Shown here: one piece after another, positions 7,137 to 46,266 of the stretch | How the letters are laid out: every line of letters starts with the position of its first letter | Position numbering within the stretch: the stretch's first letter is position 1 | DNA from: a virus | Lineage: Duplodnaviria; Caudoviricetes | Strand: one strand, 5' to 3' | Length of the DNA: 64,000 nucleotides | Virus record (IMG/VR): IMGVR_UViG_3300008110_007313 | The notes under the pieces: generated by a model | What the model was told of the DNA's origin: nothing | The model's input: only the letters and a program-made list of their open reading frames with translations | Database searches by the model: none | Program-made: the position numbers and the translations under genes

Positions 7137-9094
7137 CCAACAGGCCTTGACCAGTTGTCGCGTTTTTCCCAGCCCAGTCTAAATCCATAGTGAAAACCGT
7201 CTAGGTCCGGGTATCCGTTGGGACCACGAGCTTTGAGATCATACTCAAACTTGGCATGCCAATCTCCGCGATGATTGATTTTGAACCAGATGTCTGCGTT
7301 AAATTCATCGCCTTCGTGAAACACTCGTACAGGCCCAAATTCTGCAAGATCTTCTGCATGATCAAAACGCAGTTTGAGTTCAAACTCTCCAACTGCCAAC
7401 CACAGTATTCTCAACAATGGCCATATTTCATTGACCAAGGTGTCGGCCACGGGATTGATTGTGGTCTTAATGATCTGATAATCAAAGTCTTCTTGATACG
7501 GAATCAAAGGACGAATATTAGCCGGAGAATAAGCCAAGGTATAATGATCCTCAACGCCGGGACGTTCAATGTGTTGTCCGTATTTGATACCCTGTTCATG
7601 TCGACGCATGTGATTCATCAAGATGTTCACACTTTTGAGTCGCACCAGTCTATGCGCCGCGGTATTGGTGTGGTCCTCAGTGGTCCATAGTGCACCAAAG
7701 TGTCCGTGGCTGATTCCAAACTTCTCACGCTCTTGACTCAATGGTGTATCAGGCAACACATTACAGGTCTGCACAGCATAGCCAGCAATATTGGTTCTGC
7801 GGGTACGCCACATCAAGGTCATGGTATCTGCAAAATCTTTGGCAGTTTCGCCAGGGAAGCCCACAAACCAGTTGGTAAATGCACTGATACCAACTTTGGT
7901 TATGTCATTGAGATTTTGTTCTACTGATTCTCGTTTGACATTCTTTTTCATGATGTCCAACACTCGCTGACTGCCTGACTCCACACCAAAGTTCAACATG
8001 TTGCAGCCGCTGGCCTTGAGATCTCGAAAGTAATCTATATCCATACGATCATCGTTGCGACAGTATCCTACCCAATGCAGGTCATGCATACCGCGTTCAA
8101 CTACGCCGCGAGCAAAGGCCCGTAGTTCTTTGAGATTACCATTGACCAGGCTGTCAATGAACCAGATAGTACGAACACCAAAAGTTTTATATTGATACTC
8201 AATTTCGTCCACAATGTTGCCAGCCAGCCTGCCACGATATCGCCAGAATGTTGTTTCCGAGCAGAACTGGCACTTGGCCACACATCCGCGACTGATTTCA
8301 GAACCCACTGAAGTGCCTAGTCGATACAGTTCCAGGGGCAGATCGCTGTAGTCGGGCCATGGCATAGAATCTAGATCAATGCGCTGTTCTTTGGGATGAC
8401 GCAGTATGTGATCTGGGATGGTTTCGCCAGCTTCGACCTTTTCTAGAATGTCCAAAAAGATCAGTTCGCCTTCGCCTACCACAATGTGATCGTACAGTTC
8501 GGGACGTTTGACTTTTTCCTGTATGGCCTGTGATCCTCCGGCCAAGAACACAGCGTCGGGCAGGCGTTCACGCAGGCGTTCTACTACCCAGTTGGCACAG
8601 TTGTTGTTGGTGTAGTACAGGCTGAACCCAACTACATCAGGAGCAAATTCTACAATCTGATCAATGTACTTGAGCAACAGAGGTTCGATAACCGGGTGTA
8701 CATCTTGCCAGTATGGTTCTTCTTTGTCCCACTTCCAATCAGTGTAGGGACTCCATAGTTCCTCGCCCAGCTCACTGTAACACAACACATTGAGGTCGTA
8801 TGCACAGGCCGCAAAACCTGAGGCTTTGGCCAGGGCCGTGAGTCGTGCAATATTGTAAGGTGCAATATCCACTGACCAAAATGGAGTCATTACCATGGCC
8901 ACCCGTGTTTGACGAGTGGTTGGGTGAATAATTACCGAACTTAGATTTTTTTGCGGACGACCTCGACTCAGTTCTTCTACCACACTCAACATCTGTGTGT
9001 GTGGACAGTCTGACTGAATCGCTGGAGTACTAGACTTCAGTGCCGGTTGAATCGCAAAGACTTTTTTGTTGATAGAGTCTCTTGCTGTTGCCAT
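7133..9094 (-). CDS. B12-binding domain radical SAM enzyme (class B-like)
   Basis: PDVVGFS-LAGG-HIVVGEGE B12 domain; SRGCVAKCQFC CxxxCxxC; GVESGSQRVL; VGFPGET. Confidence 0.9.
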   Translation of the reverse strand: MATARDSINKKVFAIQPALKSSTPAIQSDCPHTQMLSVVEELSRGRPQKNLSSVIIHPTTRQTRVAMVMTPFWSVDIAPYNIARLTALAKASGFAACAYDLNVLCYSELGEELWSPYTDWKWDKEEPYWQDVHPVIEPLLLKYIDQIVEFAPDVVGFSLYYTNNNCANWVVERLRERLPDAVFLAGGSQAIQEKVKRPELYDHIVVGEGELIFLDILEKVEAGETIPDHILRHPKEQRIDLDSMPWPDYSDLPLELYRLGTSVGSEISRGCVAKCQFCSETTFWRYRGRLAGNIVDEIEYQYKTFGVRTIWFIDSLVNGNLKELRAFARGVVERGMHDLHWVGYCRNDDRMDIDYFRDLKASGCNMLNFGVESGSQRVLDIMKKNVKRESVEQNLNDITKVGISAFTNWFVGFPGETAKDFADTMTLMWRTRRTNIAGYAVQTCNVLPDTPLSQEREKFGISHGHFGALWTTEDHTNTAAHRLVRLKSVNILMNHMRRHEQGIKYGQHIERPGVEDHYTLAYSPANIRPLIPYQEDFDYQIIKTTINPVADTLVNEIWPLLRILWLAVGEFELKLRFDHAEDLAEFGPVRVFHEGDEFNADIWFKINHRGDWHAKFEYDLKARGPNGYPDLDGFHYGFRLGWEKRDNWSRPVG

Positions 9095-20691: not shown

Positions 20692-20991
20692 TCACCCTCT
20701 CATGCTTTCCATAGTAATAATTTTACCCAATTCACGTTCAAAATCCAGTTCGTCTTGAATCACATAGACTTTGCGATAACTGCGATCTGTTTTGCGATCG
20801 TAGTGATTGAAACTCACAATGCGTCCGCCAATGGCTTTGTGTACTTGCATATTTAAGCCTTCTTCTGACTCAAAGTCATCTCGTACTCGAACTGTACCAT
20901 GTTTGCCAGAGTTGAGTCTCAACTCTGGTGGCTCAGGACAATCTTCAACATCGCGCAGTTTGCGTCGAATATAGTGCCATACAAATTTCAT
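20692..20991 (-). CDS. hypothetical protein
   Basis: Start MKFVWH, ATGA-coupled. Confidence 0.65.
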   Translation of the reverse strand: MKFVWHYIRRKLRDVEDCPEPPELRLNSGKHGTVRVRDDFESEEGLNMQVHKAIGGRIVSFNHYDRKTDRSYRKVYVIQDELDFERELGKIITMESMRG

Positions 20992-21440
20992 GCTGTTTTC
21001 CTTTGTTGCAAATATTGTTCCCACTGTACCCATTTGTTCCGGACCAAGAATCCCCAATCACGCTGTTTTGGTCCGGGCATGAACAAGGTCCAACAAGTTA
21101 TCGTAGGATCCAGTTCGATACGGTGGTATGTTTCAGCGCTGGCAGTTCTAAAGCTACCAGGCCCACACCACTTGGCAACTTCGCCAATTTTTTGACCTTG
21201 CTCGTTGAACTGCGGACGCCATTCCCAGTAGCCACCTTTTAAAATCAAAGTAGCAAAAGGCCAGGGATGATCATGTACATCATCAGGATCCGATTTCAAA
21301 AACTTGTGAAGAAACACATTGAAGGGGAAACGCTCTCGTTCTTTGAGAAACAGATAATAGCGTTCCAGGTAAGGTTCATTGTCCACACGATCATAAACAA
21401 TACGCTTGCGACCCAGACGTTCTAGCAATTTGAGAAACAT
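20988..21440 (-). CDS. cupin-fold hypothetical protein
   Basis: LHKF-DVHDHPW-LILKGGYWE-YHRIEL metal-binding cupin pattern. Confidence 0.7.
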   Translation of the reverse strand: MFLKLLERLGRKRIVYDRVDNEPYLERYYLFLKERERFPFNVFLHKFLKSDPDDVHDHPWPFATLILKGGYWEWRPQFNEQGQKIGEVAKWCGPGSFRTASAETYHRIELDPTITCWTLFMPGPKQRDWGFLVRNKWVQWEQYLQQRKTA

Positions 21441-21460
21441 AAAAACTCCTTTGCCCAGCA

Positions 21461-21489
21461 ATTATAGCAAAGATCAATTTAACAGTCAA
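21461..21489 (-). promoter_or_regulatory. sigma70 promoter
   Basis: TTGACT-N17-TATAAT. Confidence 0.8.
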
Positions 21490-21538: not shown

Positions 21539-21805
21539 TTAGACCAGGCCCATGGCCATGGCCTTGTAGCCAGCGGCAATCAGTTTGCGACTTGGAGTGC
21601 CCAAACGATACTCAGTAACTTGAACATGGTTGCCGGCCACACGCTTGTTGGCGTACACAGCATAACCCGCTTGACGGATACGGCTAACTTCGGCACTAAT
21701 GTTCTTGATACCAAAACGCTTGCCGGCTTGGCTAGCGCTCACACGCTCACCAGCTTGAAGAGCGTTCAACAGTTTAAAGGTTTTAGTTTCTTGATTGATT
21801 TGCAT
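21539..21805 (-). CDS. winged-HTH DNA-binding protein
   Basis: LLNALQAGERVSASQ-FGIKNISAEVSRIRQAGY HTH pattern. Confidence 0.7.
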   Translation of the reverse strand: MQINQETKTFKLLNALQAGERVSASQAGKRFGIKNISAEVSRIRQAGYAVYANKRVAGNHVQVTEYRLGTPSRKLIAAGYKAMAMGLV

Positions 21806-21893: not shown

Positions 21894-22547
21894 TTACTTT
21901 GGTACAGTTGACCAAATAACAATAGCTCGTTTGCATTCAACCCCGTGACTGGGGAAATCGTCGCTGGTATGAAACTTGCGTCGATTGGTTGCAAACAGGT
22001 CTCCCCGGCGCCAAGGAAAAACAGCTTCAGGAGTGAGCCATTGTAGGTCTAAGCGATCCACATGTGTAAGGTATCGCTGATGAAATTCGTCGTCTATGGC
22101 ATGCGGCTGTGGTTGAATTTCGTTTACCCAAACATCCAAAGTCTTGATGGTTTCGTGTTGTTGTTCAAACACAATGGTGTTGCTTTCGTAATTGTCCAAG
22201 GGTATAATAAACGTCCAAGCAGCCAGATCAGAACCCGCGGGATCAAAACTCGCACTCATCACGTCTGAATGTATGCCGTAGGGAACATAGGCATTGAGAA
22301 TGTGTGTGGTTGCTAACTGTACATTTTGTCCAAAATGTTGATGAATTCTGGGAACAAGAATGTCTGCTACTGCCTGATACTTTTCCATCCATAAAAAGAA
22401 ACTGTGAGTGACTGCATTATGACCAGCGTTGGTGCCAACATCAATGAACGTTGTTTCAGTTGTTCGATGTTTTTCCACAGTGGATTCAATAATGGAAATC
22501 TCAGCGTCGCTGAGAAAATTTGGGATAGTACGTGATTCAAAGTCCAT
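21894..22547 (-). CDS. 2OG-Fe(II) oxygenase-like protein
   Basis: GIHSD (HxD), WTFIIPL strand, distal FHTS and KRAIV; start MDFESR after TAAATA. Confidence 0.65.
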   Translation of the reverse strand: MDFESRTIPNFLSDAEISIIESTVEKHRTTETTFIDVGTNAGHNAVTHSFFLWMEKYQAVADILVPRIHQHFGQNVQLATTHILNAYVPYGIHSDVMSASFDPAGSDLAAWTFIIPLDNYESNTIVFEQQHETIKTLDVWVNEIQPQPHAIDDEFHQRYLTHVDRLDLQWLTPEAVFPWRRGDLFATNRRKFHTSDDFPSHGVECKRAIVIWSTVPK

Positions 22548-22622
22548 AGTACCATATTTAATTGTAATTTTTAAACGGCGCAGATAAATAACCGTGTACA
22601 AACACATAGAACGGCGTGAAAT

Positions 22623-23054
22623 ATGTTACAAATAATAACATCTCTTAGTGATGACCTTGAGGCATTGATCCGGGACGATCCTGTTCGACCTGAGATTCCT
22701 GTCAGCGACCGAGTTAATCAGAACTCAAGAATCTACATGCTCAAAGAAGGGGACAAGACGCAGGCCGTGACCTGTGTGAAGTTCTTGAACACAATTCCCG
22801 AGGCAGTGGATGACTTGGTTGGTTTGGTTGGGAGTGCCACAACTGCGGTATTTTACACTATTTGGTCGTATTCGGCAGGTGCTGGACGCTCGCTGATTCA
22901 AGAGGCCCAGAAGTCGATTGAAGCTGAGTTTCCCGGAATCGATACCTACGTTACCTTGAGTCCAAAGACCGAGATGGCTCGTCGCTTCCATCTAAAGAAT
23001 GGTGCTGGTGTGTACCGCGAAAATTCTACCACTGTGAATTACATCTATAAGTAA
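22623..23054 (+). CDS. minimal malonyl-CoA decarboxylase-like GNAT-fold protein
   Basis: TAVFYTIWS-GRSLI-EFPGIDTYVTLSP and RFHLKNGA resemble MCD motifs. Confidence 0.65.
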   Translation: MLQIITSLSDDLEALIRDDPVRPEIPVSDRVNQNSRIYMLKEGDKTQAVTCVKFLNTIPEAVDDLVGLVGSATTAVFYTIWSYSAGAGRSLIQEAQKSIEAEFPGIDTYVTLSPKTEMARRFHLKNGAGVYRENSTTVNYIYK

Positions 23055-23124: not shown

Positions 23125-23352
23125 ATGAGCAAAACACCTTACGAGATCCGTCTCGAACTTCTCAAAATGGCCAACGAAATCCTCGTAACGCCAGTCTTCC
23201 AAACTCGTGACGCTATGTTACAGGAATATCATTCCAAGTTAACTGAAGCTAATCGCGAAACTCACCCGTTTCCTACTTTACCAGATTTTCCGTCTAGCAC
23301 AAGTATTGTGAGCAAGGCCGAAGAACTCAAGAAGTTTGTAGACCAGGCGTAA
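23125..23352 (+). CDS. hypothetical protein
   Basis: MSKTPYEIRLELLKMA after AGGAG RBS; followed by a terminator. Confidence 0.75.
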   Translation: MSKTPYEIRLELLKMANEILVTPVFQTRDAMLQEYHSKLTEANRETHPFPTLPDFPSSTSIVSKAEELKKFVDQA

Positions 23353-23356
23353 AAAT

Positions 23357-23380
23357 GAAAGCCCCTTGCGGGGCTTTCTT
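23357..23380. terminator. intrinsic terminator between convergent genes
   Basis: GAAAGCCCC-ttgc-GGGGCTTTC. Confidence 0.85.
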
Positions 23381-23735
23381 ATGGCTGTATGCTTTTAACG
23401 TGCTTACAGTCGCCTCGGAATCGGAAACCGGAACATGTGCATGATAGATTTCCACCATCGTCTGTGACGGTATATTCATCGCCTTTTGATCCTTTTATAG
23501 TCCATGTCTTGGCAACAGGGCGATCATTGTGATCAACAAACCCAAAAATGTTACGCACGACCTCAAACTTGCGTCCACGCACATCAATCTGAATGGGCTT
23601 TTTGAACACTTGCACATCTGCAGGATTACCCCAACGTGCATAAGCATAGGCACGATTCTTAGCATCGTCCATCCAATATACATGTGGAGTTTCTCGACCA
23701 TCGTCCCAGCGAGTCATTTCAATGAACGCTTTCAT
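23379..23735 (-). CDS. SWIM zinc-finger protein
   Basis: YTV-SCTCSGFRFRGDCKHV. Confidence 0.8.
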   Translation of the reverse strand: MKAFIEMTRWDDGRETPHVYWMDDAKNRAYAYARWGNPADVQVFKKPIQIDVRGRKFEVVRNIFGFVDHNDRPVAKTWTIKGSKGDEYTVTDDGGNLSCTCSGFRFRGDCKHVKSIQP

Positions 23736-24863: not shown

Positions 24864-24893
24864 CTTGAACTCCTTTTTAATTACTATACAAGT

Positions 24894-24922
24894 ATTATAG
24901 CAAATCGGGATATTTTGGTCAA
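24894..24922 (-). promoter_or_regulatory. early promoter repeat
   Basis: TTGACC-N17-TATAAT-ACTTGTATAGTAATTAAAAAGGAG. Confidence 0.9.
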
Positions 24923-24928
24923 CCGTTT

Positions 24929-24997
24929 TGTTGTAGTGAAAAAACAACACTTTTTTGCCTGTTTTTTAAGCAGATCAAGTGTTGTTTTTTTGCAACA
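24929..24997. repeat. inverted repeat upstream of the promoter
   Basis: AAAAAACAACACTT ... AAGTGTTGTTTTTT 14-bp arms, extended by TGTTG/CAACA. Confidence 0.8.
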
Positions 24998-24998
24998 A

Positions 24999-25291
24999 TC
25001 ACAGCTCAATAGCCCTGCGCGCAGGGTGCCCTTGGCAAACTGTGCTACATGAGTAAGCTCATGCGCAAGGGTAGCACCCAACACGGCTATGTCCTTGACA
25101 GGTCGGAGCACAACCAAGTAGGTGTCCATACCTTTAAGTGGCACAGTGGTGCCTAGATCTTCAAGGTCGGGATCTATTATAACATGCAGGAGCTTCTTGC
25201 TTTTGGTCAGTTTTAACTGTTCCAACATAGAAGGAAGCAGACTCTCAACAAAACGTTTGGTTTTGGTACTGCCTTCGACATGAAATTCCAT
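24999..25291 (-). pseudogene. HExxH metallopeptidase-like gene, apparently internally deleted and frameshifted
   Basis: LAHELTHVAQ; after GTLR the frame runs into promoter sequence while RRAIEL-stop lies in another frame. Confidence 0.55.
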
Positions 25292-25684: not shown

Positions 25685-25933
25685 TCAACTTGGACGTAAT
25701 AACCAGCCTTGGCCAGAAATTCGATGATACCAGCAATAAAAAGGTTCATCGATGATCAATTTGTAGTTTTTGCATAGATGCCAATATTTTGGCAAAATTT
25801 CCATGCCATCAATAAACACTGTGTCTGTGCTGGAAAACTGCAAGACATCATGTAGCCCTGCACGACTCAAGACTCCGTTGCATTCTATATCCAAGTGGTA
25901 GTCAGTACCCAGCAGATCGAAAAAGTTGTTCAT
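25685..25933 (-). CDS. hypothetical protein
   Basis: 82 aa; EPFYCWYH-GQGWLL. Confidence 0.65.
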   Translation of the reverse strand: MNNFFDLLGTDYHLDIECNGVLSRAGLHDVLQFSSTDTVFIDGMEILPKYWHLCKNYKLIIDEPFYCWYHRISGQGWLLRPS

Positions 25934-27176
25934 ACTCTGGTAGATAGTCTAAGATGCTGTTTTTGCGATTGCCTTCGAGCTGTTTTAAAAACTGCACCAA
26001 GTCTGGCAAGCGATGACTTTCGTCTGGTTTGTTTTTCAAGTAGTTTACATAACTCTGTAAATCTTGTACGACCTGTTGCTGGGCAACGTTAGGGTTTCGT
26101 ATGTTTATTATGGTTTCAGAATCAACAGTATGTTGGTCAACCCAGTGCTGTAGCTCATCAATAATATGCTGTCTATATTCAATTGGCAACACCGCAGGTC
26201 TCAAACATTCTGGCTGATTTAAAAAATTACAACTTTCCACAGTGATGTTGTGATTCCAGGCATATTCATAAATTTCCAACATGTGTCCAACTGTGAGTGC
26301 AGTGGGGGTAATTCTAAATTGGGTAAGCCATTCATGTTCTTTAGCCACAGCAAGCCAACGATTCATGGTCTCAAACACTGTAGACAAGCTCACAGGGTAA
26401 CGAACGTAATCATTAACGTGTTTGAAACTTTCTACGCTCATTCCAAGATTTACGCCCTGGAACTGTTTCAGCAAATCAACAACATCGTCGCGCCAGACAC
26501 CAAGGTTGGTTGTAAATCCAACAGTGGCGGTGCGATGCAAGCCGGCGTGAATCAACGCTTCAAGAATAATCTTAAACGCAGGAGTGATCAGTGTTTCGCC
26601 GCCAATGAAATGTAGATACTGTATGTGCGGACTAGAAACAAGGGCGTCAACTAGTCGTTGCACCAATACAGGATCGTCGGTCCAATTGGCAGGTACATTA
26701 TCGCTGACTATTCCAATCTTTTTAAATTCAGCAGCCAGACGAGAACTCGAATGAGGGCTACAAAACACACAGGCGCCGTTGCAATAATTGCCAAGGTCTA
26801 TTTGCCAGTCCTGGGGCATTTGTGTGGTTGTAGCACCTTTGGCAAATTCCTTGGACCAAGGGCTAGATACCAGTGTTTTTTCAAACTGTTCGATACGAAC
26901 ACCTATTTTCAGCAACTGTTTTTGTCGGCCGCTGACTTTGTTGTGTTGCTCCATCTGTGTGCAGTCAGCACAGCCCACTGGCAATTCACCATTGAGAAAC
27001 TGTTGCCTGACCGCAGACATTTGATGCTGAAAGAACTCTGCCGGTGTTGCAGTGCGTATACTGCCAGCAGAATTTCTTTGATCTTTGGTAGCCCAACGAC
27101 AGTACTCATAGTGGCCAGCATTGTTGATTCTCATATGCAGCCAAGGGCTAGAACAGAAGTTGGACTTTAAATTCAT
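25902..27176 (-). CDS. radical SAM enzyme with N-terminal SPASM/twitch-like Cys domain
   Basis: CSSPW-YCRW-CADC; DLGNYCNGACVFC; HFIGGET; FTTN. Confidence 0.88.
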   Translation of the reverse strand: MNLKSNFCSSPWLHMRINNAGHYEYCRWATKDQRNSAGSIRTATPAEFFQHQMSAVRQQFLNGELPVGCADCTQMEQHNKVSGRQKQLLKIGVRIEQFEKTLVSSPWSKEFAKGATTTQMPQDWQIDLGNYCNGACVFCSPHSSSRLAAEFKKIGIVSDNVPANWTDDPVLVQRLVDALVSSPHIQYLHFIGGETLITPAFKIILEALIHAGLHRTATVGFTTNLGVWRDDVVDLLKQFQGVNLGMSVESFKHVNDYVRYPVSLSTVFETMNRWLAVAKEHEWLTQFRITPTALTVGHMLEIYEYAWNHNITVESCNFLNQPECLRPAVLPIEYRQHIIDELQHWVDQHTVDSETIINIRNPNVAQQQVVQDLQSYVNYLKNKPDESHRLPDLVQFLKQLEGNRKNSILDYLPEYEQLFRSAGY

Positions 27177-30862: not shown

Positions 30863-30876
30863 TATTTATGGGCAGT

Positions 30877-42778: not shown

Positions 42779-42870
42779 TTGTTTTCTCCTTTATTAAGCA
42801 AGATGACTTTTGAAATGTAGCCCGACCATCGGCACTACAAACATATTTATACAGGAAATCTCAACTCTTG

Positions 42871-45945: not shown

Positions 45946-46266
45946 TTATTTATTGGTGGCACCAACTACCCTAACGGCTAATTTTACACTGATCCAACTG
46001 GCAAAGCTAGCGTCAGGAACATCAAACCATACATTGATCTTCTTGCGCTCCCAGTTGTTTTCAAGTTTGCGTTTTATACGACTTTGGCCAGACCAATTGC
46101 CGTGGCCAAAAACTCGTTGTGCTTCGCGGATGATAGAGTACCACTGTTTTGCACTCTCTAATTCAACCACGATGCGGCATAGGTGCATAGCGTCGGTCGT
46201 TGTTTTAAGCGGGTCAAGAGACTGCAACGTGCTATTGCTAGCAGAGGTTTCAATATTAACAGACAT
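45946..46266 (-). CDS. hypothetical protein
   Basis: 106 aa; AAAGGA RBS. Confidence 0.7.
   Translation of the reverse strand: MSVNIETSASNSTLQSLDPLKTTTDAMHLCRIVVELESAKQWYSIIREAQRVFGHGNWSGQSRIKRKLENNWERKKINVWFDVPDASFASWISVKLAVRVVGATNK

Follow-up and report, generated by a model that had tools for sequence, protein, structure and literature searches.

A stand-alone protein of 143 residues with the catalytic core of malonyl-CoA decarboxylase in aquatic phages and marine alphaproteobacteria

We describe a short phage gene whose product is homologous to the catalytic domain of malonyl-CoA decarboxylase (MCD). It lies in a stretch of 64,000 nucleotides, hereafter the window, which is DNA of a giant lake phage and carries genes for a ribonucleotide reductase, an ATP-dependent ligase, a tail-spike-like protein and a methyltransferase; the nearest near-complete relative is an IMG/VR contig of 331.7 kb (95% complete according to CheckV). 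The open reading frame starts with ATG and encodes 143 amino acids followed by a stop codon. We regard the protein, which we refer to as mini-MCD, as a minimal, free-standing GNAT protein from the MCD branch that would decarboxylate malonyl-CoA or a very close β-carboxy-acyl thioester, and we give this reading a probability of roughly 0.6. Being the bare catalytic core of MCD, the protein probably destroys, within infected cells, the building block of fatty acids. The gene and the codons of its key residues are located as follows:

22623..23054, plus strand: mini-MCD gene, encoding a GNAT-fold core with homology to the catalytic domain of MCD (Pfam, profile search, AlphaFold, Foldseek, VIA-align, hhalign)
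22851..22853, plus strand: codon of Phe77, corresponding to human MCD Phe288 on strand β4 (AVFYTIWS aligned with AIFYSIS / AVFYSIS)
22878..22886, plus strand: codons of Gly86-Ala87-Gly88, the short GNAT-type pyrophosphate-binding loop, motif A (conservation)
22959..22961, plus strand: codon of Ser113, corresponding to catalytic Ser329 of human MCD (VTLSP aligned with LSP / VTLSP)
22989..22991, plus strand: codon of His123, corresponding to catalytic His423 of human MCD (RFHLKNGA aligned with NFHLQNGA / RFHLxNGA)
23046..23048, plus strand: codon of Tyr142, corresponding to MCD Tyr456, the residue that holds the catalytic His (TVNYIY aligned with MVNYLY)

A minimal MCD-like catalytic domain had been proposed for this gene in a first-pass annotation, which quoted motifs from the DNA and set them against known MCD motifs. 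The former, TAVFYTIWS (with F77), GAGRSLIQ (residues 86–93), EFPGIDTYVTLSP (with S113) and RFHLKNGA (with H123), are all present in the translation, where S113 is part of a VTLSP segment and F77 of AVFYTIWS. The latter (AIFYSIS, FLIKRV, EFP...LSP and NFHLQNGA) are found in the human MCD chain 4f0x when it is aligned to the family profile. The domain assignment itself is borne out by several searches. The window protein matches the MCD C-terminal domain of Pfam (PF05292) with 30.0 bits and an E-value of 5e-7, above the gathering threshold of 23.2 bits. Our family alignment comprises 82 diverse members with 32–63% identity to the window protein, of which 40 match PF05292 at E ≤ 0.01. The profile of these 82 sequences, searched against the PDB, retrieves the five solved MCD structures only (2ygw, 4f0x, 4ksa, 4ksf and 4ks9; E 1e-6 to 2e-5), and the hhalign comparison with full-length bacterial MCDs yields a probability of 98.4% (E 4e-15). 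In the profile alignment to human MCD, the equivalent segments run from DDPVRP (human VHPVK) to TLSP, skip the MCD insert and continue with FHLxNGA. Judged from these sequence comparisons, the resemblance of the window protein to MCD is far beyond chance. PHROGs and NCBIfam assign no family to it.

The structural comparisons point in the same direction. An AlphaFold2 model built from the family alignment (pLDDT 96.2) contains a complete GNAT core, at whose strand β1 the protein begins. The earlier proposal was to fall if the structure failed to superpose on the catalytic domain of MCD, and it does superpose. In a Foldseek search of the PDB, the ten best-ranked hits are MCD chains (TMq 0.66–0.85), and VIA-align, which is independent of Foldseek, places human MCD first (2ygw_A; Z 15.6, rmsd 2.1 Å, 143 of 143 residues, 27% identity), followed by the SxtA decarboxylase domain (Z 14.3), the MCD of C. 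metallidurans (13.7), GphF (13.2), serotonin N-acetyltransferase (13.2) and CurA GNAT_L (13.1). The nearest structural kin of mini-MCD are thus the GNAT proteins that decarboxylate.

These neighbours also bear on two other readings of the protein. It could be an acyl-CoA-dependent acyltransferase, as is usual for GNATs, modifying a protein or some small molecule, perhaps via an invariant cysteine, Cys51. Consistent with this, it has the GNAT fold, ordinary acetyltransferases follow close behind in VIA-align (Z 13.0 and lower, with many at Z 11–13), its P-loop has the short canonical xxGxG/A form, and two of the 82 family members touch the Acetyltransf_1 family (PF00583). The window protein itself, however, has no PF00583 match, and decarboxylases account for five of the six best VIA-align chains. 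Moreover, Ser, His and Tyr form the decarboxylase set, with His123 at the position of the general-acid Tyr of canonical GNATs, which has given way to His in MCD/CurA-type enzymes (PMC3701320). We therefore regard an acyltransferase as rather improbable.

Alternatively, the protein could decarboxylate by the same mechanism another physiological substrate, such as malonyl-ACP, methylmalonyl-CoA or a different β-carboxy-acyl thioester. Its structural neighbours of the SxtA, GphF and CurA type are listed among the carrier-protein-dependent GNATs (PMC11685415), its pocket is reshaped by three deletions, and the residue at position 77, whose MCD counterpart is believed to sit beneath the leaving carboxylate, varies in the family. 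On the other hand, identity over the aligned residues in VIA-align is 27–28% to MCD and only 13–18% to the polyketide synthase (PKS) decarboxylase domains, sequence searches find MCD only, the glycine loop for binding the pyrophosphate of CoA is preserved, and a gene for an ACP-like protein is present in just one of five near-complete phage genomes. Together with the genomic distribution described below, this makes a different substrate unlikely, and a decarboxylase of malonyl-CoA or a very close relative of it is the reading we prefer.

The roles of the active-site residues are known from mutagenesis of MCD and CurA (PMC3701320). The MCD dyad Ser329–His423 is equivalent to CurA Thr355–His389, the S329A exchange costs MCD 110-fold in kcat, Tyr456 holds the catalytic His through a hydrogen bond, and Phe288 is placed beneath the leaving carboxylate (PMC3701320). 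The earlier claim that both catalytic residues are retained in a protein of only 143 amino acids holds well beyond the window, as Ser113 and His123 are each kept in 81 of the 82 family members. Tyr142 is kept in all 82; it lies next to the end of the model, where residue 143 pairs with residue 457 of 2ygw_A. In the pyrophosphate-binding loop, G86 is found in 77 of 82 sequences and G/A88 in all of them. Other positions count against a decarboxylase. Phe288 is strictly conserved in MCD, but its counterpart, although present as Phe77 in the window protein, is Phe in only 53/82 family members; the MCD loop bearing a conserved Asp is deleted, with Asn134 (75/82) being the residue nearest to it; and Asp19 and Cys51 are invariant and specific to the mini family, in place of His and Glu/His in MCD, which would also suit an acyltransferase.

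Pseudoenzymes usually lose their catalytic residues. Here, the dyad and the Tyr are kept in 81–82 of 82 sequences that share only 32–63% identity with the window protein, which argues against a non-catalytic binder of malonyl- or acetyl-CoA that would serve as a sensor or sequestering factor. Such a role might suit a very small protein without the MCD oligomerization domain, yet we consider it highly improbable.

For the preferred decarboxylase, we infer the substrate and the reaction as follows. The β-sheet core would bind the CoA thioester and carry the Ser113–His123 pair, with Tyr142 holding the His. This pair would polarize the thioester carbonyl, upon which CO2 would be released and acetyl-CoA left, as in MCD and in CurA, GphF and SxtA. 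In the infected host, the malonyl-CoA pool would thereby be drained, de novo fatty-acid and phospholipid synthesis throttled, and carbon returned to acetyl-CoA. [quoted passage not shown] What the phage would gain is uncertain, because a decarboxylase acting alongside an active host acetyl-CoA carboxylase would set up an ATP-wasting cycle.

The family is large. A phmmer search of 1.84 billion representative proteins yielded 353 clusters at 50% identity, nearly all of them 136–160 amino acids long, and with clustering at 90% there are 5,166 matching proteins of 78–251 amino acids. A few of them already carry the JGI label ‘Malonyl-CoA decarboxylase C-terminal domain’. Longer, apparently fused relatives (179–359 amino acids) contain no further informative domain, and their gene calls probably extend too far. 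At least 586 mini-MCD loci are found in IMG/VR, whereas the 50,697 GenBank phage records contain a single copy, Mosig_00145 of Pelagibacter phage Mosig EXVC030M, which is annotated as a hypothetical protein. When 185,579 species genomes were scanned with a pattern, 19 loci came up, each of them in a metagenome-assembled genome (MAG) or a single-cell genome, and some of these are truly chromosomal. In one genus of streamlined marine Paracoccaceae with genomes of ~2 Mb, for instance, 6 of 15 genomes encode mini-MCD, and one MAG has two copies. Mini-MCD is thus not phage-specific, as it is also a common cellular enzyme. Phage-type forms with up to 76% identity to that of the window also occur in MAGs titled Haliscomenobacter, Beijerinckia and Polynucleobacter (loci L082, L083, L084 and L088); these contigs, assigned to unrelated phyla, are probably mis-binned phage DNA, so the titles should not be read as hosts. 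Our literature search returned no paper on a short form of MCD, phage or cellular, and nothing relevant on phage-encoded or auxiliary-metabolic MCD.

A further pattern is seen in one order of alphaproteobacteria with SAR11-sized genomes (0.8–1.5 Mb; 121 genomes sampled). Mini-MCD is encoded in 70 of these genomes and full-length MCD (431–445 amino acids) in 18, and none has both (Fisher p 2e-8 for the 121 genomes, a statistic that ignores kinship). The mini form thus appears to stand in for full-length MCD, an indirect hint that it catalyzes the same reaction; the mutual exclusion likewise speaks against a different physiological substrate. A study of SAR11 has described ‘mlycd’ as differentially distributed among the genera of Pelagibacteraceae and under strong purifying selection (PMC12636525). 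A replacement of one form by the other in the same genomic position is unsupported, as the positions differ. We also considered a split gene in which the N-terminal domain of MCD (MCD_N, PF17408) is encoded separately. MCD_N is absent from the SAR11-sized genomes with mini-MCD, from Mosig and from the near-complete phage genome closest to the window, and it was detected with 92 bits in the full-length-bearing genome that served as positive control. Because MCD_N was found only there, the mini form is not one half of a split gene, in line with the stand-alone protein envisaged in the first-pass annotation.

Phylogenetic trees were rooted on full-length MCD and rest on ~145 alignment columns, which are too few for the deeper branching order. 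The short forms all lie beyond a single long branch that has full support. Those of Paracoccaceae are one tight clade nested among the others, and the clade that contains the window protein, which is well supported (99), consists of phage sequences only. The Mosig copy is nearest to the SAR11 forms, with up to 63% identity; this closeness resembles the pattern expected of an auxiliary metabolic gene.

The gene neighbourhood in the window says little on function, because it is conserved only in close relatives. Other phages usually show a different setting. A DnaB-type helicase gene lies within 6 kb of mini-MCD in 63 of 141 non-redundant phage loci, mostly upstream of it in the same orientation at a distance of one to six genes, and the block around it comprises a primase gene, a carbamoyltransferase-like gene, the helicase gene and a nucleotidyltransferase-like gene. 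In Mosig, mini-MCD is located between thyX and a gp59-like gene. At four Paracoccaceae loci, the gene for an EamA-family transporter follows ~100 nt after mini-MCD (e.g. L090:6004-7463, L092:5962-7425 and L094:4967-6429); among them are both copies of the two-copy MAG, although their surroundings otherwise differ. This pairing with an exporter is more typical of acetyltransferases and therefore counts in favour of an acyltransferase and against a decarboxylase.

Two further neighbourhoods may be recorded here. In 29 of the 141 non-redundant phage loci (e.g. L059:3418-4113, minus strand), a gene for a membrane protein of the Bax1-I/YccA family lies near mini-MCD in the opposite orientation, and in 21 of these 29 it is the immediate upstream neighbour. 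In a cellular locus (L274:1-11166), the SAR11-like mini-MCD representative P0222 shares a block of co-oriented genes with three that encode radical SAM/SPASM proteins, a setting that differs from the other cellular contexts of mini-MCD.

In the window, mini-MCD and the 75-residue open reading frame behind it lie on the plus strand amid minus-strand genes, and the following elements surround them:

22583..22590, plus strand: box GATAAATA, similar to a T4-type late promoter, 33 nt ahead of the mini-MCD start codon (conservation)
23125..23352, plus strand: open reading frame of 75 amino acids with an AGGAGA ribosome-binding site (sequence reading)
23357..23378, no strand assigned: G+C-rich hairpin of 9 pairs at the end of the two-gene unit and of a convergent minus-strand gene (terminator scan)

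The ATAAATA motif upstream of mini-MCD is invariant in 13 related phages, in which the flanking intergenic DNA has diverged so far that it is barely alignable. Within the 64-kb window, this motif occurs only four times, compared to eight times expected by chance (22584-22590 on the plus strand, and 30863-30869, 42844-42850 and 45947-45953 on the minus strand). According to the coordinates of the open reading frames, each of these sites either shortly precedes the start of a same-strand frame or coincides with it. Since this holds for four of four sites, ATAAATA looks counter-selected except as a possible T4-type late promoter. We infer that the box acts as a promoter and that mini-MCD is expressed late; in this phage lineage, it would probably be transcribed together with the 75-residue open reading frame. 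The latter, whose AGGAGA site is strong, has no Pfam or NCBIfam match, and among 100 related loci just 11 retain it. The hairpin was called on the minus strand by the terminator scan; being palindromic, it may serve the plus strand as well, where the T run is weak.

The other genes nearby are mostly small. Divergent to mini-MCD is the gene of a 217-residue protein (21894-22547, minus strand; the probable start is the internal methionine of MDFES) without a match in Pfam or NCBIfam, nor in a tblastn search of 100 related loci, and further along lies that of a 157-residue protein with an HDHPW motif and without a Pfam match (20988-21461, minus strand). Additional small minus-strand genes around mini-MCD, at 21539-21805, 23379-23735, 24884-25291 and 25902-27176, include those of a winged-helix HTH_39 protein, of a protein with a SWIM zinc-finger-like C-terminus, of a DUF6782 metallopeptidase-like protein (below the cut-off) and of a radical SAM enzyme.

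A possible connection to lipids emerges from the gene content of the phages that encode mini-MCD. One diverged mini-MCD gene is located 43 nt downstream of, and directly adjacent to, a gene for a membrane fatty-acid desaturase. All five near-complete jumbo genomes with mini-MCD that were tested encode such desaturases, with one to five genes each, as do Mosig (Mosig_00080) and two of four half-complete mini-MCD contigs. These desaturases are homologous to each other, and each has three His boxes. Conversely, mini-MCD is present in five of six near-complete genomes with a desaturase. The two genes are within 6 kb of each other in only 1 of 148 non-redundant loci, and no desaturase was found in the window itself. 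As the genomes are related and large and the comparison has no control set without mini-MCD, the link is a lead and suggestive only. When the desaturases of Mosig and of the closest relative were used as tblastn queries, no counterpart was found in any GenBank phage record other than Mosig, and with no other cultured phage matching, this search is uninformative as a base-rate control. Short membrane desaturases of 216–264 amino acids with three His boxes are very common in uncultured aquatic phages, with at least 597 loci in IMG/VR (examples of the family: L183:274-978, minus strand; L108:1377-2081, plus strand; L185:1179-1829, minus strand; L184:1030-1800 and 7896-8690, minus strand). Taken together, mini-MCD could drain malonyl-CoA late in infection and thereby freeze lipid synthesis, and the desaturases could remodel the existing acyl chains of the membrane. 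We regard this scenario as doubtful, though with some chance of being correct; if true, it would define a new class of auxiliary metabolic genes, directed at a committed lipid precursor in very abundant aquatic bacteria.

The kind of enzyme is already known, and its domain is flagged by Pfam-based pipelines. The present analysis adds the conservation of the promoter-like box, the setting near replication genes, the clade from Paracoccaceae and its EamA neighbours, the quantified exclusion between mini and full-length forms, the negative result for a split gene and the co-occurrence with desaturases. If active, mini-MCD would be the smallest known malonyl-thioester decarboxylase, with 143 residues compared to about 450 for MCD, and would indicate that the GNAT core alone suffices for this reaction. 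Carried by a phage, it would count as an auxiliary metabolic gene that targets malonyl-CoA, the precursor committed to membrane lipids, and our literature search returned no description of such a gene. The ecological scale is considerable: the family comprises thousands of clusters, is common in aquatic phages and, among the SAR11-sized genomes sampled, occurs in over half. One cultured system is available, namely Pelagibacter phage Mosig with Candidatus Pelagibacter ubique HTCC1062.

Among known systems, mini-MCD is most similar to MCD (MLYCD/MatA, EC 4.1.1.9), with which it shares the GNAT-fold core, the Ser–His dyad and its supporting Tyr, and the VTLSP and FHLxNGA motifs, as well as, in the window protein, the FY pair on β4, whose Phe varies across the family; even its N-terminal DPVRP...R segment pairs with HPVK...RR of human MCD. 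It differs in size, as MCDs have about 420–490 residues, and lacks the N-terminal helical oligomerization domain (PF17408). The helical insert between β5 and β6 is also absent, leaving a gap of 53 residues in the hhalign alignment and only 9 residues between Ser113 and His123. Furthermore, the 14-residue β6–β7 loop, whose conserved Asp occupies the position of Arg404 in CurA, is deleted, and the P-loop is 5 residues shorter in the hhalign alignment.

In being a GNAT domain with a His-Thr/Ser dyad and without the MCD helical domain, mini-MCD resembles CurA GNAT_L (2ree/2ref), GphF (6mfc) and SxtA (7uci), which it matches with Z 13.1–14.3 over 141 residues. These, however, are domains of megasynthases with aligned stretches of ~190 residues, whereas the window protein, at 13–18% identity to them, is free-standing, does not possess the Arg404 of CurA and has no PKS or ACP neighbour, the adjoining genes being small and unrelated. 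With canonical GNATs (PF00583), such as RimI and serotonin N-acetyltransferase, it shares the fold, the size class and the short pyrophosphate loop, but it carries His123 where these have their general-acid Tyr, on the helix after β5. Finally, the cellular mini-MCDs of SAR11-sized alphaproteobacteria and marine Paracoccaceae as well as Mosig_00145 belong to the same short family and are either labelled hypothetical or left without annotation. Unlike the window protein, the SAR11 forms have a basic N-terminal extension of 25–50 residues, and only 33% of the window residues match Mosig_00145; nonetheless, all short forms are one group, set apart from full-length MCDs by a long and fully supported branch.
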